Of a stretch of DNA of 63,347 nucleotides, positions 2,919-63,347 are shown in pieces. Within the stretch, counting starts at the first letter, position 1. Each line of letters starts with the position of its first letter. A program made the translations under genes and the position numbers. Source of the stretch: a virus (taxonomy: Duplodnaviria > Caudoviricetes); the IMG/VR virus record IMGVR_UViG_3300020161_002487, positions 1 to 63,347 of that record. One strand, given 5' to 3'. The notes beneath the pieces were generated by a model, which ran no database searches, was not told the DNA's origin, and saw nothing but the letters and a program-made list of their open reading frames with translations.

Positions 2919-3116
2919 ATGGAAAACATTACAGAAACTGAATTGATGGTGAAGGAAATCCGAGAATGGTGTCTAGAGCGTCATTCCAAACTAATTCGCA
3001 GTGATCGGGTCGAAGATGCAATTGCATTGGATTCTGAATTTTATGAGTGGCTAAGCACTGATGAAGATGAGGGAGACACTCTAGAAATCCTTAGCATCAG
3101 TTCTTCTGATGGTTGA
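2919..3116 (+). CDS. Hypothetical protein
   Basis: 65-aa ORF after a TTGACA...TACAAT promoter-like sequence. Confidence 0.65.
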   Translation: MENITETELMVKEIREWCLERHSKLIRSDRVEDAIALDSEFYEWLSTDEDEGDTLEILSISSSDG

Positions 3117-3194
3117 GGGGGTTGACAAATCCTAAATAATCACTTATAATTGAAATTTATTTTTATCATAATAATTTAAAAAAAATAAAAAAAA

Positions 3195-3297
3195 CATAAA
3201 TAATAATACCTGTTAGGTTGGCGCTTTTCAGGCAGAAAGGTGCATTTTTGCACCTTTTCTTTTATAAATAATAATGCCAACCTAATAGAATAGAATT
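3195..3297 (+). ncRNA. Endonuclease-associated cassette copy 1: late promoter, putative small hairpin RNA (~3208-3262), terminator, late promoter, complementary mRNA leader
   Basis: CATAAATA 3195; CCTG..CTTTTCAGG stem; terminator 3235-3258; TATAAATA 3263; 3210-3222 complementary to 3276-3288; recurs at 55143-55249 (-) and 62976-63086. Confidence 0.7.
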
Positions 3298-3951
3298 ATG
3301 ACTTTTCAAAGTCCAAGAATTTACACGTATAAAATTACTTTTGAAGAAGTTCCTTATTATTACTATGGAGTACACAAGGAAAAAAGATTTGACGAAGACT
3401 ATTGGGGTTCACCGAAGACAAATAAATGGTGTTGGAAACTTTATACACCAAAGAAACAAATATTAGAAATATTTGACTATACTGATGAAGGTTGGATACA
3501 AGCACAGGAAATTGAGAAAAGATTGATACAACCAATCTTTAATAATGATAAGTGCTGCCTGAATGAAAGTTGTGGAGGAAAAATATCACTTAAAGTATTG
3601 AGGGAAAATGGAAGAATAACTGGAAAAATCACTGGGAAAGTAAATGGAAAACTAACATATAATAAAAAAATTGGGGTTCATGGGAGATCAAGGGAAAAAA
3701 TGGTTGACGATGCTATAAAGGCTGGAAAAAGAACATATGAACTTGGGGTTGGAATTTTTAGTAGATCTAATGAAAAATGGAGTGAAGACTCGATAAAAGG
3801 AGGAAAAATAGGAGGAAAAAAAGGCGGAAAATCAGTAAACCTTCAAAAATGGCAATGCACTAGAACGGGATATATTTCTTCTCCAGCAGGACTTTCTAAT
3901 TATCAAAGAGCAAAGGGAATTGACACATCAAATAGAATAAGAATTAAATAG
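3298..3951 (+). CDS. Free-standing GIY-YIG-like (Seg-type) homing endonuclease
   Basis: IYTYKITF...YYYYGVH...YWGS, conserved E and N; Gly/Lys-rich repeats in C-terminal half. Confidence 0.7.
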   Translation: MTFQSPRIYTYKITFEEVPYYYYGVHKEKRFDEDYWGSPKTNKWCWKLYTPKKQILEIFDYTDEGWIQAQEIEKRLIQPIFNNDKCCLNESCGGKISLKVLRENGRITGKITGKVNGKLTYNKKIGVHGRSREKMVDDAIKAGKRTYELGVGIFSRSNEKWSEDSIKGGKIGGKKGGKSVNLQKWQCTRTGYISSPAGLSNYQRAKGIDTSNRIRIK

Positions 3952-22854: not shown

Positions 22855-23502
22855 ATGAAAATCTTTTTAGACACAGCAGATGTCGATCAAATCAAATCTG
22901 CATACGATACTTCGTTAATTGATGGCGTAACTACAAACCCAACAATTATTCTTAGAAGCGGAAGACAACTCAAAGAAGTCATCACAGAAATCTCAGATTC
23001 ATTTCCATTACTTGAAAGTATCTCTGCTGAAGTAGTTGCGGATACTGCAGAGGAAATGTTGAGGCAGGCAGCAGAATACACAGAAATTCCAAATGTAACC
23101 ATAAAAGTTCCGTGTACTCCAGAGGGATTGAAAGTTTGTAAGGAGCTTTCTTTGGTTGGTATTAAAACTAACGTGACTTTGGTATTTACTGTGGCTCAGG
23201 CTATTCTTGCATCGAAAGCGGGTGCAACTTATGTCTCACCTTTTGTTGGTCGCTGGATGGATCAATCAATTGATGGTATCGAATTGATTAAAAACATTCG
23301 TAAAGTTTATGATCATGCATTCTCCGAAACTGAAATTCTTGCCGCATCTATTCGTGATGTGAGACAAGTCGAGCAGTGCATTCTTGCCGGTGCTGATGTG
23401 GTTACAATTCCACCAGTAGTATTCTTCGGAATGTATAAGAATGTTATGACAGAAAAAGGATTGGAGCAATTCAATAAAGATTGGGCTTCTGTAAATAAAT
23501 AA
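22855..23502 (+). CDS. talC: Transaldolase (TalC/FSA family)
   Basis: FLDTAD, GVTTNP, IKVP, YVSPFVGR, LAASIR. Confidence 0.96.
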   Translation: MKIFLDTADVDQIKSAYDTSLIDGVTTNPTIILRSGRQLKEVITEISDSFPLLESISAEVVADTAEEMLRQAAEYTEIPNVTIKVPCTPEGLKVCKELSLVGIKTNVTLVFTVAQAILASKAGATYVSPFVGRWMDQSIDGIELIKNIRKVYDHAFSETEILAASIRDVRQVEQCILAGADVVTIPPVVFFGMYKNVMTEKGLEQFNKDWASVNK

Positions 23503-23509
23503 TCAATTG

Positions 23510-23540
23510 CTCCCTTCGGGGAGTTTTTTTTTTATAAATA
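23510..23540 (+). terminator. Intrinsic terminator immediately followed by late promoter TATAAATA (23533)
   Basis: CTCCC-TTCG-GGGAG then T run. Confidence 0.85.
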
Positions 23541-23857
23541 ATAGAAAAAGTAATAATTACTATGTACAATTTACAAGAAGCATATTTGGGTGTTTATTAT
23601 GATCTTGATGAGGCGGAGAAGGTATTTCCATATGGCAAAGTTGGAGATAAATTGAGATCACTCCATAGCAAAAGACAAGAAGCAAAAACCCCAGAAGAAG
23701 AAAATAGAATTGCTAACAGGCAAAAAAAAATTAATAAAGAATATAATGTTCCCATGGAACAACTAGATCTCTACGATCTAATCTTCGACTATCTTCTCGA
23801 TGAAGGCTATGCTGATACCGAAGAATCAGCAACCGTAATTATGGCGAACATGAGCGA
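23534..23857 (+). repeat. Two dispersed near-identical blocks (23534-23611 = 26286-26363; 23757-23857 = 26611-26711)
   Basis: Direct comparison: 2 mismatches in 78 nt and about 5 in 101 nt; intervening segments unrelated. Confidence 0.9.
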
Positions 23858-26243: not shown

Positions 26244-26313
26244 TCTCTTGAACTTCCAGATATTGGAGTATGGAGTTTTTTTTACATAAATAATAGAAAA
26301 AGTAATAATTACT

Positions 26314-27063
26314 ATGTACAATTTACAAGAAGCATATTTGGATGTTTATTATGATCTCGATGATGAAGTTTTTGATGAAGGATACCAGGGGATGGATCAT
26401 GGAAAGATTCAAAGACAAGCAAAAAGACTTGGTGGGAAAAGAGGTGATCTTCTTAGTAATATTTCCAAAATGTTGAGTAATCCTGGTTGGGCACAAGCGT
26501 CTACAAGAGCAGCAAGACAAAATAGAACACAATCTGGTCCTTATAGACAAGCAAAAGCACGGCAAGCAAGAGACGATGCAAGAGCAGACATCGAAAAATA
26601 TGGATTTCATGAACAAGTAGATCTCTACGATCTAATCTTCGACTATCTTCTCGATGAAGGTTATGCTGATACTGAACAATCAGCAACCGTAATTATGACG
26701 AACATGAGCGAGGATTGGATTGATGATATTTGTGAAGAAGTTATTGATGAGGCAAATCGAGCAGAAAGAGAACTCGGATATTCTCCGAGAGAACGTGAAA
26801 GAGCGAGAAATCTCAATCAACATACAGATAGACCCATATTTTATAAAACAACCAAAAAAGGTAGAGGTGACAACAGCGATCCACTCCTAAATAAAGCACA
26901 CAAAGGAATGACCGCAAATAGACAAGCATCTCATAAAGCAGGAAGACATCTTAGAGGTGATACTGGAGGATCTGGCAATGTAGTGAGATCACGCTATCAA
27001 GCAAATAAAGATCATGAGGATGGTTATCCATCAATCAAAAAAAGAGGTGGGGGTACTTTCTGA
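26314..27063 (+). CDS. Modular late protein, paralog of 23562
   Basis: Same leader and conserved blocks; different basic segments. Confidence 0.8.
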   Translation: MYNLQEAYLDVYYDLDDEVFDEGYQGMDHGKIQRQAKRLGGKRGDLLSNISKMLSNPGWAQASTRAARQNRTQSGPYRQAKARQARDDARADIEKYGFHEQVDLYDLIFDYLLDEGYADTEQSATVIMTNMSEDWIDDICEEVIDEANRAERELGYSPRERERARNLNQHTDRPIFYKTTKKGRGDNSDPLLNKAHKGMTANRQASHKAGRHLRGDTGGSGNVVRSRYQANKDHEDGYPSIKKRGGGTF

Positions 27064-27727: not shown

Positions 27728-27761
27728 TTGACAGATCCATCATAATCTGTTACTATAAATA
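27728..27761 (+). promoter_or_regulatory. Overlapping sigma70 and T4 late promoters for psbA
   Basis: TTGACA-17-TGnTACTAT overlapped by TATAAATA at 27754. Confidence 0.75.
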
Positions 27762-27789
27762 CATCAACAAATCAGGAACCCCTGACGTT

Positions 27790-27905
27790 GTTCTTGTCCG
27801 ACCGAGACTAATGGGCAAGTAAAATCCGTCTCTCATGCCTACACTGGAGGGTGGTGTAGGATATACTGTAACTGTTCAGTTCCCCCTGAATTCTTATTTA
27901 CCCTT
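27790..27905 (+). ncRNA. Structured psbA leader, probably PhotoRC-II motif
   Basis: GAGAC/GTCTC and CCTACACT-GGAGG-GTGGTGTAGG helices upstream of phage psbA; family assignment from recall. Confidence 0.6.
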
Positions 27906-53188: not shown

Positions 53189-54487
53189 ATGATAAATCTA
53201 CCTCAGATAGAACCAAAAGTATTTGAAGTATTTTCCTCCGACGGAAAGCACAAAGCAGACATCAAAAATGGTGTCCATTCTTTGTACTATTATGAAAGTA
53301 TATTGGAAGATTCTGTCATAGTTTCTTTTAATTTATTGGATACTGGATTTAGATTGGGCGAAGGAAAGACGACTGAAATTACTGAGTATGGAAAAACCGA
53401 TTTGCAGTTTGGTGAAAAAATATATCTTAATTTGGAAGATGATGCTGGAAACAAAATATTATTTTCGACAGAAGAAAGACAATTTAGATTTGCAGCAAAG
53501 CCAAGTAAAATAAGAACAAATCAACTTGTCATAATGTCTGCCAATTTGGTTTCATATGAAACTATAGTAGAGAAAAATTTGGACAGCAGAGTTTCTTCTT
53601 TTTATGATGGAAGAGTATCCGACATAGCAAGTAATATATTTAAAAATCATTTAAAGACAAAAAAAGATATAGAAATTGATCCAACAATTAATACGTTAAA
53701 AGTAGAAGGAAGTATCGATCATACTGGATGCCCTTTTCATAGATTAAATTGGCTATCAAAAAGAGCAGTACCAGAGATTAAATCTTCATTTGGAAACACT
53801 GCTGGATATTTTTTCTATGAAACAGCAGATGGTTATAAATTTAAATCAATCGATGTATTGTTAAATCAGACGCCAAAGAAAAAATTAATATTGAATAATT
53901 CAACGGAAACTCCACCGGGATATGATGGAAAGATTCTTTCTAGTTCATCTTCTTCTGGTCTTCCCTATATTGAACACAAAAAACTTGGTACTTATGAATC
54001 ACAAAGAATAACGTTTAATCCTTACGATAATAAATATGAAACAAAAACAATATCATCAGAAGATCAAGATAGAGCTGCAATTAGAGCTGGAAGAGCTACT
54101 CCAGTTATTCCAAGTGAAGTAAAGGGAGCATCAAAAATTACATCTACAATTGAAGATATTGGAAGCAATATTCCCGGAAACATCTCAGATCAAATTAGGA
54201 ATTCTAAGAATCCCAATTTTGACGTAAAAGAAATTTTAAACCAATCCTTCATGAGATACAATCAATTATTTGCGATTCAAATGTCGATAACAATATTTGC
54301 GGATTTATCTCTTCATGCAGGTGATGTGATTGAATGCTATTTCCCGGAGGTTAGCTCTAAAATTACAAAATTGGCAAGTGGCAAAGAATCTGGAAAATAT
54401 TTAATTTCTGACCTGTGCCACTACGTGTCACCTGAGGGGCCAAATTACACGAAATTAAATCTAATCAGGGATTCATATGGCATTTAA
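53189..54487 (+). CDS. Probable baseplate hub (gp27-like)
   Basis: YYESI, GYFFYET..GYKFKSID, SGKYLISDLCH...LIRDS; upstream of gp5. Confidence 0.65.
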   Translation: MINLPQIEPKVFEVFSSDGKHKADIKNGVHSLYYYESILEDSVIVSFNLLDTGFRLGEGKTTEITEYGKTDLQFGEKIYLNLEDDAGNKILFSTEERQFRFAAKPSKIRTNQLVIMSANLVSYETIVEKNLDSRVSSFYDGRVSDIASNIFKNHLKTKKDIEIDPTINTLKVEGSIDHTGCPFHRLNWLSKRAVPEIKSSFGNTAGYFFYETADGYKFKSIDVLLNQTPKKKLILNNSTETPPGYDGKILSSSSSSGLPYIEHKKLGTYESQRITFNPYDNKYETKTISSEDQDRAAIRAGRATPVIPSEVKGASKITSTIEDIGSNIPGNISDQIRNSKNPNFDVKEILNQSFMRYNQLFAIQMSITIFADLSLHAGDVIECYFPEVSSKITKLASGKESGKYLISDLCHYVSPEGPNYTKLNLIRDSYGI

Positions 54488-55142
54488 TTTTTCCACGACC
54501 AGAAACCCAATTTGGTCCTGGGCATTCTTTGGAAAATTTTGTGTTTCCTTTTCCATCGTTCCACCATTTTTTATCTTTATTTGCCTCACTTTGTTTTCTT
54601 CTAGTTTCTTCAGAGTGCGATTTTCCATAATTAGGATGTTTTTCTCCTTTCTTTGCTTCACTTTGCTTTCTTCTAGTTTTTTCAGAATGTGATTTTCCAT
54701 AAAAAGGATGATTTTCTCCTTTATTTTTTTCACTTAATTTTCTTCTGGTTTCTTCTGAAGGTGATTTTCCTTTGTTTGCCTCACTACACTTTCTTCTGGT
54801 TTCTTCTGAGTGCGATTTTCCTTTCTTTGCTTCACTTTGTTTTCTTCTGGTTTCTTCACTTATTATGGCACCAGAAGAACCTTCTCCGCCATCGGTTTTG
54901 TTTCTTAAGATTCCGGTTCCCAAATCCTTTCTACCGAGAAACGCAATCATATACTTCTCGTGCTCGAATGCCTCTTCTTCTGTGAGATTTTGCTTAAGGA
55001 ATATAATTCTCGATTGGTCTTTTGGTTTGTTTATACTTCTATTTGAAGAAAATACTCTATATCCCTTACCTTTCCCGACATAATAAGGAGTTCGATCCTC
55101 ACGCAAATATGCGTAGGTATAATACTCTCTTGGAGTTTCCAT
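54465..55142 (-). CDS. GIY-YIG homing endonuclease with NUMOD3 repeats
   Basis: YYTYAYLR..PYYVGKG, RNKTDGGEG, repeated HSEETRRKQSEA; antisense to the structural operon. Confidence 0.9.
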   Translation of the reverse strand: METPREYYTYAYLREDRTPYYVGKGKGYRVFSSNRSINKPKDQSRIIFLKQNLTEEEAFEHEKYMIAFLGRKDLGTGILRNKTDGGEGSSGAIISEETRRKQSEAKKGKSHSEETRRKCSEANKGKSPSEETRRKLSEKNKGENHPFYGKSHSEKTRRKQSEAKKGEKHPNYGKSHSEETRRKQSEANKDKKWWNDGKGNTKFSKECPGPNWVSGRGKIKCHMNP

Positions 55143-55282: not shown

Positions 55283-55498
55283 ATGGAAACAAAACTTTAT
55301 GACAATGTTTTAAAAATTCAACAAGAATTGGATCTTGGGTTATGTTCAAGACAAAGAAAAAAATATCTGGAGAACGAACTGAGAATGTTATTGGCATACC
55401 AGGAAAAAAATCCAACTCAAGAAGAAACCCCAACTCCATTTCAACTATATTGTTTTGAAAATCCAGAAGCACTAGAGTGTAGAGTATTCGATGTATGA
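55283..55498 (+). CDS. cp12: CP12 Calvin-cycle inhibitor
   Basis: C-terminal FQLYCFENPEALECRVFD matches the CP12 Cys pair motif. Confidence 0.85.
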   Translation: METKLYDNVLKIQQELDLGLCSRQRKKYLENELRMLLAYQEKNPTQEETPTPFQLYCFENPEALECRVFDV

Positions 55499-57765
55499 AT
55501 GATCAACAATTTGGCGAAAATCCCATGCTGTGGATGGGACAGATAGTAGATGATAAGTATTGGAAGGATAATATTGCCTCGGAAAAATGGGACGACTATA
55601 AGAAATTAACAGGTTGGGGATATAGATATAAGGTTAGAATTTTTGGTAAACATAGCGAAGATAAAAGTATAGTTCCAGATGAACGTTTACCGTGGGCAGA
55701 AGTTCTTTATCCAGTAACTGCTGGTTCTGGTCATGGTGCATCTTATCAATCTTCAAATTTGAGAAAAGGTGCTTATGTTTATGGGTTTTACAAGGATGGA
55801 ATAGATCGGACTGGCCCTATTATTATTGGATGCTTACCAAATGCCGATCAGACAAAATTAGAAAATACAATACCTAATACCGGATTTGTTCCTTTTAGTG
55901 CATTCATTGGAGAGAGAGTTCCAGTATATTCTATACCTCCGGGGGGCTCCCCAGCCAAACCAATTGCACCTGGGCCAAGTGGAACCCCGACTCAGGGTGC
56001 AGTCGCAGCTCCAGGTGCCAATAGTACGGCAGATCAAAACCAGATCAACGATGCTAAAAATTCTACTACATTAGCTGTATCTTCTGATTGTCAACAGGTT
56101 CCATTGGGACAAATACAAAATGATATTAAAAAATTACTTAAAGATGTTCAAAATAAAAAGAAAGAATTATATTCTTGGGCAGACTCTATAAAGTCACCAA
56201 TTTCGGATGGCGGAAAACAATATAGTATATCAGAATATATAAAGTATAAAATAGATGGAGTTGCAAAAAATATATCAAAATGGCTAAAAGGTTCAATAAA
56301 AGGAATCGAACAGTTTATATTAGATAAGATAAACGATGCGGCAAAAAAACTTTATTATGCTTTATTCCCAGGAGAAGAAAGATCAAAATTAAAGAAACAA
56401 GTAGATACAGTAAATGATTTGATCGCTTGTCTGTTCAGAAAAATAGTATCAAATTTATTTAAGATGGTAGGAGAGTTTCTAAAAACCATTGTTGAGAGAT
56501 TTATAAACGCTCCTTTATGTGCAATTGAAAATTTTGTTTCTTCTCTTTTAGGAAAATTAACAGGATTAATTACTTCCGCTTTGGGTATAATACTAGCTCC
56601 ATTAAATGCTATTCTGGGAGTAGTCAATGTAGTTGGGGATATATTTGGATTAATTGAAAATATTCTTTCATTTTTAAGTTGTGATGACAAGCCAGCTTGT
56701 CCAGAAATAAAAAAATGGAGCATTTGGGATGGTCCGGAAAAATCACAGGACATTACAAATGCTAATTTTTCTTCCATTAGAGATAAGGCAAAAACATTTG
56801 CATCAAATATAGCGACTAGTGTAGATCCAAATACATTTAATTTTGATTTAAATTTTGATGATGTATTTACCGATACATGTAACGTTGGTCCACTGCTCTG
56901 TGGCCCTCCTACTGTAGATTTTTTTGGTGGATCTGGATCTGGAGCATCTGGCAATGCGATAGTAAGTGCTACTGGAAAAATAGTTGGAATAGATATAATA
57001 AATGGTGGATCTGGATATTCCTCTGCACCAATAGTTAAACTTACAGATAGTTGTGGAAAAGGAAGTGGGGCAGTTGCAAATGCAATTATAAATAATGGAC
57101 AAGTAACAGGAGCCATAATAAAAGAATCTGGCTCAAAGTATCTTCCAGCTCAAGATGGAAGTTTAGGTGGAGATGGAGATACTTGGGCAAAAAATAGCGA
57201 TACTACAGTCCAAAGAAAAGATGGAAAATTTGATGTTCCTTATCCACCAGGAGAAAATATTCAAATAAATGAGGGAGACAAAGTAAGATTTCCAACCGGC
57301 ACATCAGTAAATGTTGGTGGACAGATTATAAATGGTGGAAATTATATAACGTCAACAAAAACTGCATCAATTACTACTCCACCTCCATCAGATTCGGCAT
57401 CCATTTTTGGTACTTATGCAACATTAGGAACTGGGAAATATCCAGTGATATTGACATTATGTGAAGCAAGAGTTGGAAATGTCGGAATAAATTATTCTCC
57501 AACTGATAAAATTATAATTGAACCCGCCAATGGCGCAGAAGCAACTCCAGTATTTGGATCATTTGGTACTTTATCTGAGGTAAAAATTATTTCAACTGGA
57601 ACTGGATTTACGGAAAAACCTAAGATATACATTGAAAGCGAAACCGGATATAATTCAGAGATAATTCCAATATTATGTGTAACTAGAGTTGGAGAAAATG
57701 AAATAAAAGATCCAACATATCAAGATAAAATAATTTCAGTAATAGATTGTGTAGGTAAAGTATAA
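55495..57765 (+). CDS. gp5: Baseplate hub / spike gp5-like
   Basis: WMGQIVD...RYKVRIFG.H...LPWA OB-fold N-terminus; GSGY repeats. Confidence 0.8.
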   Translation: MNDQQFGENPMLWMGQIVDDKYWKDNIASEKWDDYKKLTGWGYRYKVRIFGKHSEDKSIVPDERLPWAEVLYPVTAGSGHGASYQSSNLRKGAYVYGFYKDGIDRTGPIIIGCLPNADQTKLENTIPNTGFVPFSAFIGERVPVYSIPPGGSPAKPIAPGPSGTPTQGAVAAPGANSTADQNQINDAKNSTTLAVSSDCQQVPLGQIQNDIKKLLKDVQNKKKELYSWADSIKSPISDGGKQYSISEYIKYKIDGVAKNISKWLKGSIKGIEQFILDKINDAAKKLYYALFPGEERSKLKKQVDTVNDLIACLFRKIVSNLFKMVGEFLKTIVERFINAPLCAIENFVSSLLGKLTGLITSALGIILAPLNAILGVVNVVGDIFGLIENILSFLSCDDKPACPEIKKWSIWDGPEKSQDITNANFSSIRDKAKTFASNIATSVDPNTFNFDLNFDDVFTDTCNVGPLLCGPPTVDFFGGSGSGASGNAIVSATGKIVGIDIINGGSGYSSAPIVKLTDSCGKGSGAVANAIINNGQVTGAIIKESGSKYLPAQDGSLGGDGDTWAKNSDTTVQRKDGKFDVPYPPGENIQINEGDKVRFPTGTSVNVGGQIINGGNYITSTKTASITTPPPSDSASIFGTYATLGTGKYPVILTLCEARVGNVGINYSPTDKIIIEPANGAEATPVFGSFGTLSEVKIISTGTGFTEKPKIYIESETGYNSEIIPILCVTRVGENEIKDPTYQDKIISVIDCVGKV

Positions 57766-61439: not shown

Positions 61440-62918
61440 ATGAATTTTAAACAACTGATGCTTGCACCTGTTGCTCTTAGTATGGTTGCTCCTGCTGTTG
61501 CAAATGCGGCAGACATTAATATGGCAGCAGTCAATCGATATACTTCTGCAGAACAGGTCACAAGTGTTACACAATTTTCTGACGTAAAGCCTACTGATTG
61601 GGCATATCAGGCACTCGGCAATCTCGTTGAACGTTATGGTTGCGTTGCCGGATATCCTAACGGAACTTTTGTCGGTGGTCGCTCAATGACCCGCTACGAG
61701 GCTGCTGCTCTTCTGAATGCTTGTCTCGGCGGTGTAACTGAAGTGACTGATGAACTTCGTCGTCTTCTGAAAGAATTTGACGTAGAACTCGCCACCCTCC
61801 GTGGTCGGGTTGACGGTCTGGAAACCCGAGTCAATACTCTTCAGGCACAACAATTCTCCACCACTACCAAACTCAAAGGTGAAGCATCTTTCATTCTTGG
61901 TGGTGTAGATGGTGCTCGACTGGCTAACGGAACTAACGTTGGCAATACTGCATTCAACTACGATGTTCGTTTGAACTTTGACACCAGTTTCACGGGCAAA
62001 GATCTGCTCCGCACTCGTCTTCGTACTGGTAACTTCTCTAGTCAACCATTTGGTTCTTCTTCATCCCTCTTCAAACTGGACAAGGCAGAAACTTATGATG
62101 ATGTCCTGAAGATTGATCGTCTCTACTACCAAACTCCAGCCTTTACAAAAGGTGTCAGTGTAACGGTTGGTCCTCTGGTTCGTAATACTGAACTTGCCTG
62201 GATTCCCACTGCTTATAAGTCTGATATTCTTGACTTCTTTGCTGTTGCTGGCGCTCCTGGGGTTTATAACAAAGCAACTGGTGCTGGTTTCGGTGTTCAA
62301 TATGTTCAACCCGGAAAGCAAGGTATTGTTGCTGGTCTCAACTATGTTGCTCAGAGTGGTAGTAATTCTACCAAAGGAGAATTCAATGCCTCTGGCGCCC
62401 TGAACACGATGCTTCAAGTTGGTTATCGTGCTCCACAGTGGGGTGTGGCGCTGGCATACAGAAACGGAACAGAAAACACCCGTATTCGCACCTTCAATGG
62501 TGTTGGCGGAAATGCTGGCACTCTGATTGCTGATCAGGGTTCTAATAATTACGCTTTGAATGCCTACTGGCAACCTGCTACTTCTGGATTCATTCCTTCC
62601 GTGAGTGCTGCTTATGGTTGGAACAATGTGAACGGTCCTGCAACTCCTAATGGTGCCACCGATTCTCAAACTTGGATGGCAGGTCTTCAGTGGTCTGATG
62701 TGTTTACCAAGGGCAATGCCGCTGGTTTCGCCATCGGTCAACCTGGCAATGCTGCGGGTCTTTCTGCCAATGCAACAATGTGGGAAGCATTTTACAAATA
62801 CAGGGTTTCTGATAATATTTCTATCACTCCTGCGATCTTCTATGTTTCCAACAATCAAGGTCTGAATGGTGCATCCTCCAATTATGGTGGAGTTTTTCAA
62901 ACGACATTTAAGTTCTGA
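61440..62918 (+). CDS. Cyanobacterial outer-membrane porin (SLH + OprB, Som type)
   Basis: Signal peptide, FSDVKPTDWAYQAL..LVERYGC SLH domain, QFSTTTKL, terminal TTFKF. Confidence 0.93.
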   Translation: MNFKQLMLAPVALSMVAPAVANAADINMAAVNRYTSAEQVTSVTQFSDVKPTDWAYQALGNLVERYGCVAGYPNGTFVGGRSMTRYEAAALLNACLGGVTEVTDELRRLLKEFDVELATLRGRVDGLETRVNTLQAQQFSTTTKLKGEASFILGGVDGARLANGTNVGNTAFNYDVRLNFDTSFTGKDLLRTRLRTGNFSSQPFGSSSSLFKLDKAETYDDVLKIDRLYYQTPAFTKGVSVTVGPLVRNTELAWIPTAYKSDILDFFAVAGAPGVYNKATGAGFGVQYVQPGKQGIVAGLNYVAQSGSNSTKGEFNASGALNTMLQVGYRAPQWGVALAYRNGTENTRIRTFNGVGGNAGTLIADQGSNNYALNAYWQPATSGFIPSVSAAYGWNNVNGPATPNGATDSQTWMAGLQWSDVFTKGNAAGFAIGQPGNAAGLSANATMWEAFYKYRVSDNISITPAIFYVSNNQGLNGASSNYGGVFQTTFKF

Positions 62919-62970
62919 TTTCAAGTTCTGATTTCAAGTTCTGATTTCAAGTTCTGATTTCAAGTTCTGA
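62910..62970 (+). repeat. 13-bp tandem repeat AAGTTCTGATTTC x4.7 spanning the porin stop codon
   Basis: Read directly. Confidence 0.95.
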
Positions 62971-62975
62971 AGTAG

Positions 62976-63086
62976 TATAAATAAAAATGCCTGACTTGTT
63001 GGCGCTTTTCAGGTGGAAAGGATCGGGGAGCATTTCTGCTCCCCTTTCTTGTATAAATAGTATTGCCAACAAGTTAGAGTAGAACT
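62976..63086 (+). ncRNA. Endonuclease-associated cassette copy 3
   Basis: TATAAATA-aaaat-GCCTGACTTGTTGGCG-CTTTTCAGG...GGGGAGCA/TGCTCCCC-TATAAATA-gtatt-GCCAACAAGTTAG...AGAACTATG. Confidence 0.72.
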
Positions 63087-63347
63087 ATGGAAACTCCAAG
63101 AGAGTATTATACTTACGCATACTTACGTGAGGATGGAAGTCCTTATTATATTGGTAAGGGTAAGGGAGATAGAGCATTTATAAAAAATCGTAAAGGAATA
63201 AAACCACCAAAAGACTCATCAAGAATTATATTTCTAAAACAAAATCTTACCGAAGAAGAAGCATTTAAGCACGAAGTTTATATGATTGTGGTTCTTGGTA
63301 GAAAAGATTTAGGAACCGGAATCTTAAGAAACAAAACCGATGGTGGG
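63087..63347 (+). CDS. GIY-YIG homing endonuclease, 3'-truncated by window edge; close paralog of 54465-55142
   Basis: METPREYYTYAYLREDGSPYYIGKGKG...RNKTDGG. Confidence 0.9.
   Translation, partial: METPREYYTYAYLREDGSPYYIGKGKGDRAFIKNRKGIKPPKDSSRIIFLKQNLTEEEAFKHEVYMIVVLGRKDLGTGILRNKTDGG

Follow-up and report, generated by a model that had tools for sequence, protein, structure and literature searches.

The window analysed in this study is the whole of IMG/VR record IMGVR_UViG_3300020161_002487 (63,347 nt), a 63-kb fragment of a T4-like cyanophage which is estimated to be 30% complete and whose nearest named relative is the freshwater Synechococcus phage S-SRM01. Three cassettes of about 105 nt each, two on the plus strand and one on the minus strand (Table 1), lie in this window directly before nuclease open reading frames (ORFs), and it is the structure, spread and possible action of this cassette that are described here. 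The elements follow a common order in all three copies: a late-type box (P1), 5 nt, an arm, a local hairpin, a terminator hairpin, a second box TATAAATA (P2), 5 nt, a leader complementary to the arm, and the ATG of the nuclease gene. The first box, written [N]ATAAATA, is CATAAATA in copy 1 and TATAAATA in copies 2 and 3. The arm segment consists of R-CCU and 12 variable bases, followed by CUUUUCAGG; the terminator-like hairpin of the window copies is G+C-rich and flanked by A-rich and U-rich runs; and the leader is made up of the reverse complement of the variable bases, then AGAG or AAGAG, and, 7-12 nt further on, the ATG. A preliminary description of this DNA had reported three copies with a common layout, and all of them were found in place; the pairings it quoted were also right (copies 1 and 3 each pair over 13 bp with a single G-U, and copy 2 over 9 bp, to which an interrupted extension is added), while the first box of copy 1, which it had implied to be TATAAATA, had to be corrected.

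The exact sequence CTTTTCAGG occurs in the window at these three sites only, and when one mismatch was allowed 18 matches were obtained, as expected by chance, which indicates that the signal is carried by the layout and not by this 9-mer alone. The predicted short RNA of the window copies folds into two hairpins, and in the read-through RNA a long-range helix closes around both the second box and the terminator hairpin; the z-scores of the read-through folds are -7.4, -5.3 and -3.6. A switch between the local hairpin and an anti-terminator was also considered, and the short alternative pairing CUUUUC/GAAAAG appeared in one fold only.

The nucleases behind the cassettes are not of one kind. 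A BLASTP comparison of copy 1 with copy 2 gave an E value of 0.24, i.e., the two proteins are unrelated, in agreement with the earlier statement that the 3298 nuclease differs from the other two. The assignment of the copy 1 protein to the GIY-YIG family is weak, as no Pfam family was found for it at E <= 0.01 and PHROG 314 leaves it as a homing endonuclease only.

Table 1. Positions of the cassette elements, of the nuclease ORFs behind them and of the loci with a related architecture
Feature	Position	Strand	Basis or detail
Copy 1 cassette	3195-3300	+	
Copy 1 box P1, CATAAATA	3195-3202	+	late-promoter-like; predicted start A3208
Copy 1 anti-leader arm	3208-3223	+	sequence and fold
Copy 1 local hairpin H1	CCUG 3209-3212 with CAGG 3229-3232	+	fold
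Copy 1 CTTTTCAGG	3224-3232	+	exact match
Copy 1 terminator-like hairpin	3235-3258, with U-rich tail to 3262	+	fold, terminator scan
Copy 1 late promoter P2, TATAAATA	3263-3270	+	predicted start G3276
Copy 1 mRNA leader	3276-3297; 3276-3288 complementary to arm	+	duplex prediction
Copy 1 ATG	3298	+	start of nuclease ORF
Copy 1 nuclease ORF	3298-3951	+	217 aa; PHROG 314 'homing endonuclease', E 3.8e-7
Copy 2 cassette	55249-55140	-	
Copy 2 box P1, TATAAATA	55249-55242	-	
Copy 2 arm	55236-55221	-	
Copy 2 CTTTTCAGG	55220-55212	-	
Copy 2 hairpin	55211-55180	-	
Copy 2 P2, TATAAATA	55179-55172	-	
Copy 2 leader	55166-55143; 55166-55152 complementary	-	
Copy 2 ATG	55142	-	
Copy 2 nuclease ORF	54465-55142	-	225 aa; NUMOD3 three times; PHROG 314
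Copy 3 cassette	62976-63089	+	
Copy 3 box P1, TATAAATA	62976-62983	+	
Copy 3 arm	62989-63004	+	
Copy 3 CTTTTCAGG	63005-63013	+	
Copy 3 terminator core	63025-63044	+	
Copy 3 P2, TATAAATA	63052-63059	+	
Copy 3 leader	63065-63086; 63065-63077 complementary	+	
Copy 3 ATG	63087	+	
Copy 3 nuclease ORF	63087-63347	+	incomplete at the window end; 81% identity to copy 2 in the aligned N-terminal part
Sister architecture (L258, L260, L289, L290, L312, L323, L325, L334)	some 100 nt ahead of the ATG, which is near position 451 of each locus		same nuclease family

Spread and pairing of the cassette

In a pattern scan, the 5' motif was found in at least 120 viral contigs. Among the matches listed, taking both scans and the window together, 132 of the 162 core-motif matches had a complementary leader (reverse complement) of at least 7 nt, and these 132 reduced to 91 unique cassettes and to 52 clusters at 93% identity. 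With the covariance model, S-SRM01 was found to have six copies, a complete 243-kb contig five, and three other large contigs none; when the cassette was compared by BLAST with named phages, S-SRM01 was the only match. Besides S-SRM01, many uncultured freshwater cyanomyovirus contigs carry the motif, which is widespread among them.

The same module precedes GIY-YIG-like, HNH-like/NUMOD3 and TnpB (OrfB_IS605) genes, and the same arm type can be found before four or five unrelated nuclease families. Based on Pfam and PHROGs, GGTGGTT arms stand before four ORF families, and GTTCGCA arms stand before TnpB, GIY-YIG-like and HNH-like ORFs. The complete 243-kb contig (L251-L254) carries four TnpB-like paralogues of 398 aa with OrfB_IS605 and HTH_OrfB_IS605 domains, each preceded by a cassette; they share a unit of about 1.35 kb whose ends lie 10-25 nt ahead of the first box and about 30 nt past the stop codon, and within this one genome their arms differ by 1-3 compensated bases. 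A search for related loci with the copy 1 protein alone gave one marginal locus (L241), which was not used.

The module is also found apart from the gene. Eight distinct solo 5' modules were observed in 13 loci, at gene-less sites; some of them share their upstream flank with full cassettes and some end inside the terminator (the groups L084/L088/L100 and L006/L015, and L067, are examples of solo modules), so that they look like remnants of gene loss. One natural cassette (L110, around 600-720) has an arm, AATGGGTAGCA, that is mismatched to its leader, TGTCACCTGTTTAG, and is apparently a recombinant of two cassette types, with the 5' module of one and the leader of the other.

The predicted duplex between arm and leader had a mean energy of -22.7 kcal/mol (standard deviation 1.7) for cognate pairs in comparison to -10.6 kcal/mol (standard deviation 4.5) for non-cognate pairs among 52 representatives, and the cognate partner was best or tied best in 35 of these. 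Covariation was calculated from a model-made alignment of 78 cassettes, 74 of them distinct, on columns named by the analyst and limited to 10 core pairs, because the part of the helix near the ribosome site is out of register. The results showed that all 10 core pairs have changes on both sides, with 159 such cells in comparison to 53.7 in shuffles, and that the covariation score was 0.459 in comparison to 0.161 for the shuffles (0 of 500 reached the observed value) and to at most 0.109 for slid controls. Only 84.6% of the core cells are paired, in part because registers differ between subtypes. RNAalifold applied to a MAFFT alignment returned the local hairpin alone, since arm registers and terminator lengths vary, and the covariance model therefore carries only that hairpin.

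The helix is also oriented. Among 42 unique arm pairs, G-U asymmetry makes the duplex of the coding strand the better one in 37 and the worse one in 5. In all 52 representatives the predicted helix extends from leader position -1 or +1, relative to the predicted start of P2, into the AGAG/AAGAG element 7-12 nt before the AUG, the AUG itself lying outside the predicted helix, and a TATAAATA-type P2 box stands between arm and leader. The purine-rich AGAG-type element is probably Shine-Dalgarno-like, and the conserved CCU of the arm would then be an anti-ribosome-site sequence. These results support selection of the arm-leader pairing at the RNA level on the nuclease-coding strand.

In all cassettes examined for it (51 of 51), the local hairpin within the arm region begins at the predicted +1 or +2 of the P1 transcript, and 31 different stems occur, such as GCCUG/CAGGU, GCCUUAA/UUAAGGU, GCUUA/UAAGC, GUCUGU/ACGGAC and CUCUAA/UUAGAG. 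The percentage of paired cells is 93.2%, five of its six pairs change on both sides, and its covariation score is 0.440 in comparison to 0.233 for shuffles (0 of 500). A hairpin that competes with the lock and lies flush with the predicted 5' end is what a free and stable small RNA would need, and it would be useless to a lock acting in cis. Downstream of it, individual folding of the sequences gave a terminator-type hairpin in every one of the cassettes (52 of 52), with stems that vary and an average energy of -15.4 kcal/mol.

The first box and the predicted short RNA

Two data sets were used in which the first box played no part in the selection of loci. The box-blind scan, which was based on CTTTTCAGG and a downstream TATAAATA only, gave 119 loci, among which 31 (27 unique) had covarying arms and one of these (L193) was a chance hit; the box [A/C]TAAATA, followed by five bases and R before CCU, was present in 26 of 26 true cassettes (L204 was scored by eye). 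The protein-anchored set consisted of 80 loci fetched by the nuclease protein alone, with 76 unique upstream regions, of which 61 had the present type of cassette, 8 had a box-less architecture and 7 had nothing recognisable. The P1 box was present in 60 of these 61 cassettes, the exception being L278 with GATATATA instead; nine of the box calls were made by eye (L283, L287, L301, L309, L316, L318, L319 and L335, over-extended duplex; L281, ATG further on).

The edge of the module coincides with this box. When 13 independent upstream contexts of one subtype were compared, pairwise identity was 0.24-0.33 upstream, rose to 0.88 at the box, reached 0.95 or more in the arm and hairpin, and fell to 0.35-0.44 in the ORFs. 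This jump, together with the TnpB unit which begins 10-25 nt before the box, demonstrates that the box belongs to the module. Boxes of the same form also mark gene starts in this phage, in that 18 of the 42 [A/C]TAAATA boxes on the plus strand of the window are followed at a distance of 8-60 nt by the start of an ORF with 80 aa or more, where 2.1 were expected, an example being the CTAAATA before the baseplate-side gene at 55283. Late promoters of the T4 family have been described at -13 to -6, with a -13 base that varies among relatives, and CTAAATA is used in Aeh1 (PMC1524935). The proposal of a late promoter at the first box is supported in that the behaviour of this box matches that of the phage's late promoters, and the box is a conserved and integral element of the module. 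Both boxes of the cassette are of the late type, and no sigma-70-type site was found inside the cassettes of copies 2 and 3.

A transcript started at P1 and ended at the terminator-type hairpin is predicted to be about 55-62 nt long with a hairpin at each end. Its pairing in trans with the P2 mRNA, which had been put forward in the preliminary description, was calculated to be favourable net of the cost of opening the local hairpin, with -16.8, -15.8 and -11.7 kcal/mol for copies 1, 3 and 2, respectively.

Several other sites in the window and among the related loci bear boxes or lie next to them. The window also carries a PhotoRC-II RNA, three group I introns and a tRNA cluster; the PhotoRC-II motif is at 27783-27874, and a TATAAATA box at 27754-27761 sits 22 nt before it. 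A box, a terminator hairpin with a T10 run, and then TATAAATA with a leader are found at 23495-23560, and the 21-nt leader ATAGAAAAAGTAATAATTACT of this site recurs identically, together with its ATG, after a CATAAATA box at 26286 (26286-26317). A 13-nt tandem repeat, ATTTCAAGTTCTG, with 5.1 copies and 98% matches at 62906-62970, ends 5 nt before the first box of copy 3. A fourth homing-endonuclease-like ORF at 2432-2929 on the minus strand (PHROGs 314, 7363 and 7168) is without a cassette; it has a CATAAATA box just before an internal ATG, and its start overlaps a plus-strand ORF at 2919-3116. In cassettes of the YVYYSYEE nuclease family (L003, L004, L019, L069, L071, L092, L107 and L245), TTGAC occurs 5-6 nt before the first box.

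Models for the action of the cassette

The reading to which we give a probability of about one half is that of a portable cassette which combines a lock in cis on read-through transcripts with masking in trans by the P1 RNA. It builds on what was observed, namely the anatomy and spread of the cassette, two helices that covary, a conserved P1 and its position, and the boundaries of the module, and takes P1 firing, termination at the hairpin and translational repression by pairing as its putative steps. According to this reading, a control cassette of about 105 nt would travel with selfish nuclease genes (GIY-YIG-like, HNH-like and TnpB) of freshwater T4-like cyanophages. The consensus late promoter P2 would make the translatable nuclease mRNA, whose first 13-16 nt, up to the AGAG-type ribosome-binding element, are complementary to the upstream arm, so that pairing would mask the leader. 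The intrinsic-terminator-type hairpin would insulate the arm from P2, and the relaxed late-type P1 is placed such that transcription would start at the first base of the local hairpin. Transcripts that enter from upstream and pass the terminator would be locked in cis, on the principle known from T4 I-TevI and Aeh1 mobE, while late in infection P1 would release a free RNA with a 5' hairpin and a terminator hairpin, whose loop and 5' strand would base-pair with P2 mRNAs in trans and keep the nuclease dose low. On the product of P1 itself we are more tentative: it may be an abundant trans-acting RNA of about 55-62 nt, an antisense leash on mobile nuclease genes (homing endonucleases and TnpB) that binds loop-first, by strand displacement, at the extreme 5' end of the mRNA.

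A number of observations weigh against this combined reading, and in part they favour a simpler one, in which the arm acts only within read-through transcripts, as in I-TevI, segB, gene e and Aeh1 mobE, with the terminator as insulation and P1 without regulatory role or with some other purpose. P1 has the full TATAAATA in only 9 of 51 cassettes and is mostly relaxed, whereas P2 is full in 47 of 51 protein-anchored cassettes, and the masking RNA therefore need not be in excess. A simple terminator scan flags copies 1 and 3 and not copy 2, and in several subtypes the U-tract is short and passes directly into the P2 box, which may make termination leaky. The alignment from which the local hairpin was counted had been fitted to that hairpin by the covariance model. 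A sister architecture without the P1 box, in which an arm and a terminator-like hairpin precede P2, was found in 8 of the 76 protein-anchored loci; here a GGG...CCC stem encloses an inner hairpin whose loop contains the anti-leader, and downstream come a U-run, TATAAATA and a complementary leader right before the AUG. Three z-scores of this architecture (-0.17, -0.31 and -1.66) showed that it folds no better than shuffles, and its existence means that a dedicated promoter is not obligatory for such control. As for the supply of read-through RNA, a perfect sigma-70-type promoter (TTGACA-17-TATAAT, 12/12 matches) at 3122-3150 is aimed into copy 1, 45 nt before its first box, and in a coarse open-frame test 80 of 133 cassettes were co-oriented with the upstream ORF, 12 were opposite and 41 ambiguous, so that early read-through, and with it the classical mode, is possible for copy 1, and read-through in cis may be open to most copies. 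A lock in cis is moreover the established paradigm (PMC2988022, PMC3014915), and Dassa et al. in 2009 interpreted comparable hairpins likewise (PMC2677866). It leaves unexplained, however, why P1 should be retained, at a constant distance and at a sharp 5' edge of the module, in 60 of 61 and 26 of 26 cassettes, and why a covarying local hairpin which competes with the lock should begin at the predicted transcript start. It also fits poorly with copies lying backwards with no co-oriented upstream gene, which include the 12 opposite cassettes and copy 2: the latter is on the minus strand among plus-strand genes for a tail protein (53189-54487), a PHROG 627 protein (55283-55498) and a baseplate hub (55495-57765), no PHROG match was found for the minus-strand frame upstream of it, and its own box is therefore the sole visible source of its masking RNA. 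We thus regard action in cis alone as rather unlikely.

It is improbable that the cassette is primarily a module of DNA shuffling, i.e., a promoter-terminator-promoter repeat that provides dispersed recombination homology for moving nuclease genes, with RNA pairing being secondary. The module boundaries, which are sharp at both the P1 box and the ATG in 13 independent contexts, the same arms before different nuclease families, the chimeric cassette and the solo modules that persist without a gene, some cut in the terminator, are all in keeping with shuffling, for which the promoter-early stem-loop (PeSL) motifs offer a concept in T4-like phages (PMC4122927). But it is the pairing rather than the sequence that is conserved, the G-U asymmetry favours the coding strand, and the end of the helix coincides exactly with the ribosome-binding element; none of these is required for recombination homology, and shuffling is compatible with an RNA function and not a replacement for it. 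The preliminary description had also raised the notion of a guide or scaffold RNA that is bound by the nuclease and whose variable loop directs cleavage or autorepression. A fixed scaffold joined to a variable segment bears a superficial likeness to guide RNAs, and TnpB, an RNA-guided nuclease family, is among the associated genes. TnpB guide RNAs come from the 3' end of the element, which counts against this notion, as does the occurrence of the same module and arm types before unrelated folds; the gene's own leader is the only conserved complement of the variable segment, and gene-less alleles keep the 5' module and have no target. Because arms are not tied to the nuclease, because paralogue arms differing by 1-3 compensated bases would cross-pair, and because of the mismatched natural cassette, a guide RNA is very unlikely and the orthogonal, cognate-specific loops envisaged earlier are unsupported. 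The module itself is real, widespread and strongly covarying, and a trans-acting small RNA, to which its first box, 5'-flush hairpin and terminator point, is a serious and plausible possibility.

Relation to known systems

The proposed RNA invites comparison with type I toxin-antitoxin pairs having an adjacent small RNA, such as tisB/istR-1, zor/orz and shoB/ohsC. The small RNAs of these pairs adjoin their target and are not opposite to it, and they pair with about 15-20 nt of the target 5' untranslated region and block ribosome access. Unlike in those pairs, the protected gene here encodes a nuclease of at least 200 aa and not a small membrane peptide, and the RNA gene shares its strand, in a tandem arrangement, and its temporal promoter class with that gene. 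The targets, with 217, 225 and up to 398 aa, do not include the small toxic protein that a type I antitoxin would control.

The closest likeness is to the locks of the T4 family (I-TevI, I-TevII, I-TevIII, segB and Aeh1 mobE, and T4 e and soc), in which, as predicted here, a helix covers the ribosome-binding region (PMC2988022, PMC3014915) and a late promoter TATAAATA is placed between the two strands, so that late transcripts lack the 5' strand and are hence translatable. The present cassette differs from these locks. Its loop contains an additional hairpin of the intrinsic-terminator type; its 5' strand is preceded, at fixed spacing, by a conserved late-type box of its own and forms a local hairpin that covaries; the beginning of its 3' strand coincides with that of the mRNA; and the unit is a sharply bounded module common to several nuclease families. 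Dassa et al. described 'fractured gene' loci in cyanophage-like Global Ocean Sampling (GOS) sequences, including those of a freshwater lake, with free-standing endonuclease genes; of 16 endonuclease ORFs, 15 were reported to have an upstream hairpin, which in 10 cases came with the late-promoter box TATAAATA, the stem was formed by two conserved complementary motifs, and the hairpin was kept where the endonuclease gene had been lost (PMC2677866). In its account of these hairpins, that text mentions no first promoter, terminator or free RNA; the likeness is drawn here from the description, and not from a comparison of the motif sequences.

The statement in the preliminary description that this is not a described motif thus stood in one respect, as no Rfam match was obtained for the cassettes at the gathering score or at E <= 1 over 7.9 kb around the three copies, and did not in another, as a hairpin with a nested late promoter is the mechanism of I-TevI and Aeh1 mobE and such hairpins before cyanophage endonuclease genes were described by Dassa et al. 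The PeSL motifs of T4-like phages resemble the module in being short repeated stem-loops with a promoter at the edges of variable genes, and are likely points of recombination; they differ from it in having early promoters and no complementarity between an arm and a leader, and cyanophages go unmentioned in their description (PMC4122927). According to a 2010 review of T4, no trans-acting regulatory small RNA of this kind had been characterised (PMC3014915), and none is named in the passages considered from a 2025 review of phage small RNAs. The core mechanism is therefore already known, and what appears to be new is the conserved first box, the 5'-flush hairpin and the terminator, which together would predict a free RNA.

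Homing endonuclease and TnpB genes are selfish, and how phages and such genes negotiate expression is a live question. In a large group of uncultured lake cyanophages, very different nuclease genes use one exchangeable RNA control unit. If P1 does free the RNA, this would be the first class of trans-acting regulatory small RNA of T4-like phages, and the promoter, 5' hairpin, programmable loop of 10-12 nt and terminator would make a compact natural part for tuning translation; if it does not, the module would still be a clean and testable elaboration of the classic late-only lock of T4. With its six copies, the cultured phage S-SRM01 offers a system in which this may be tested.

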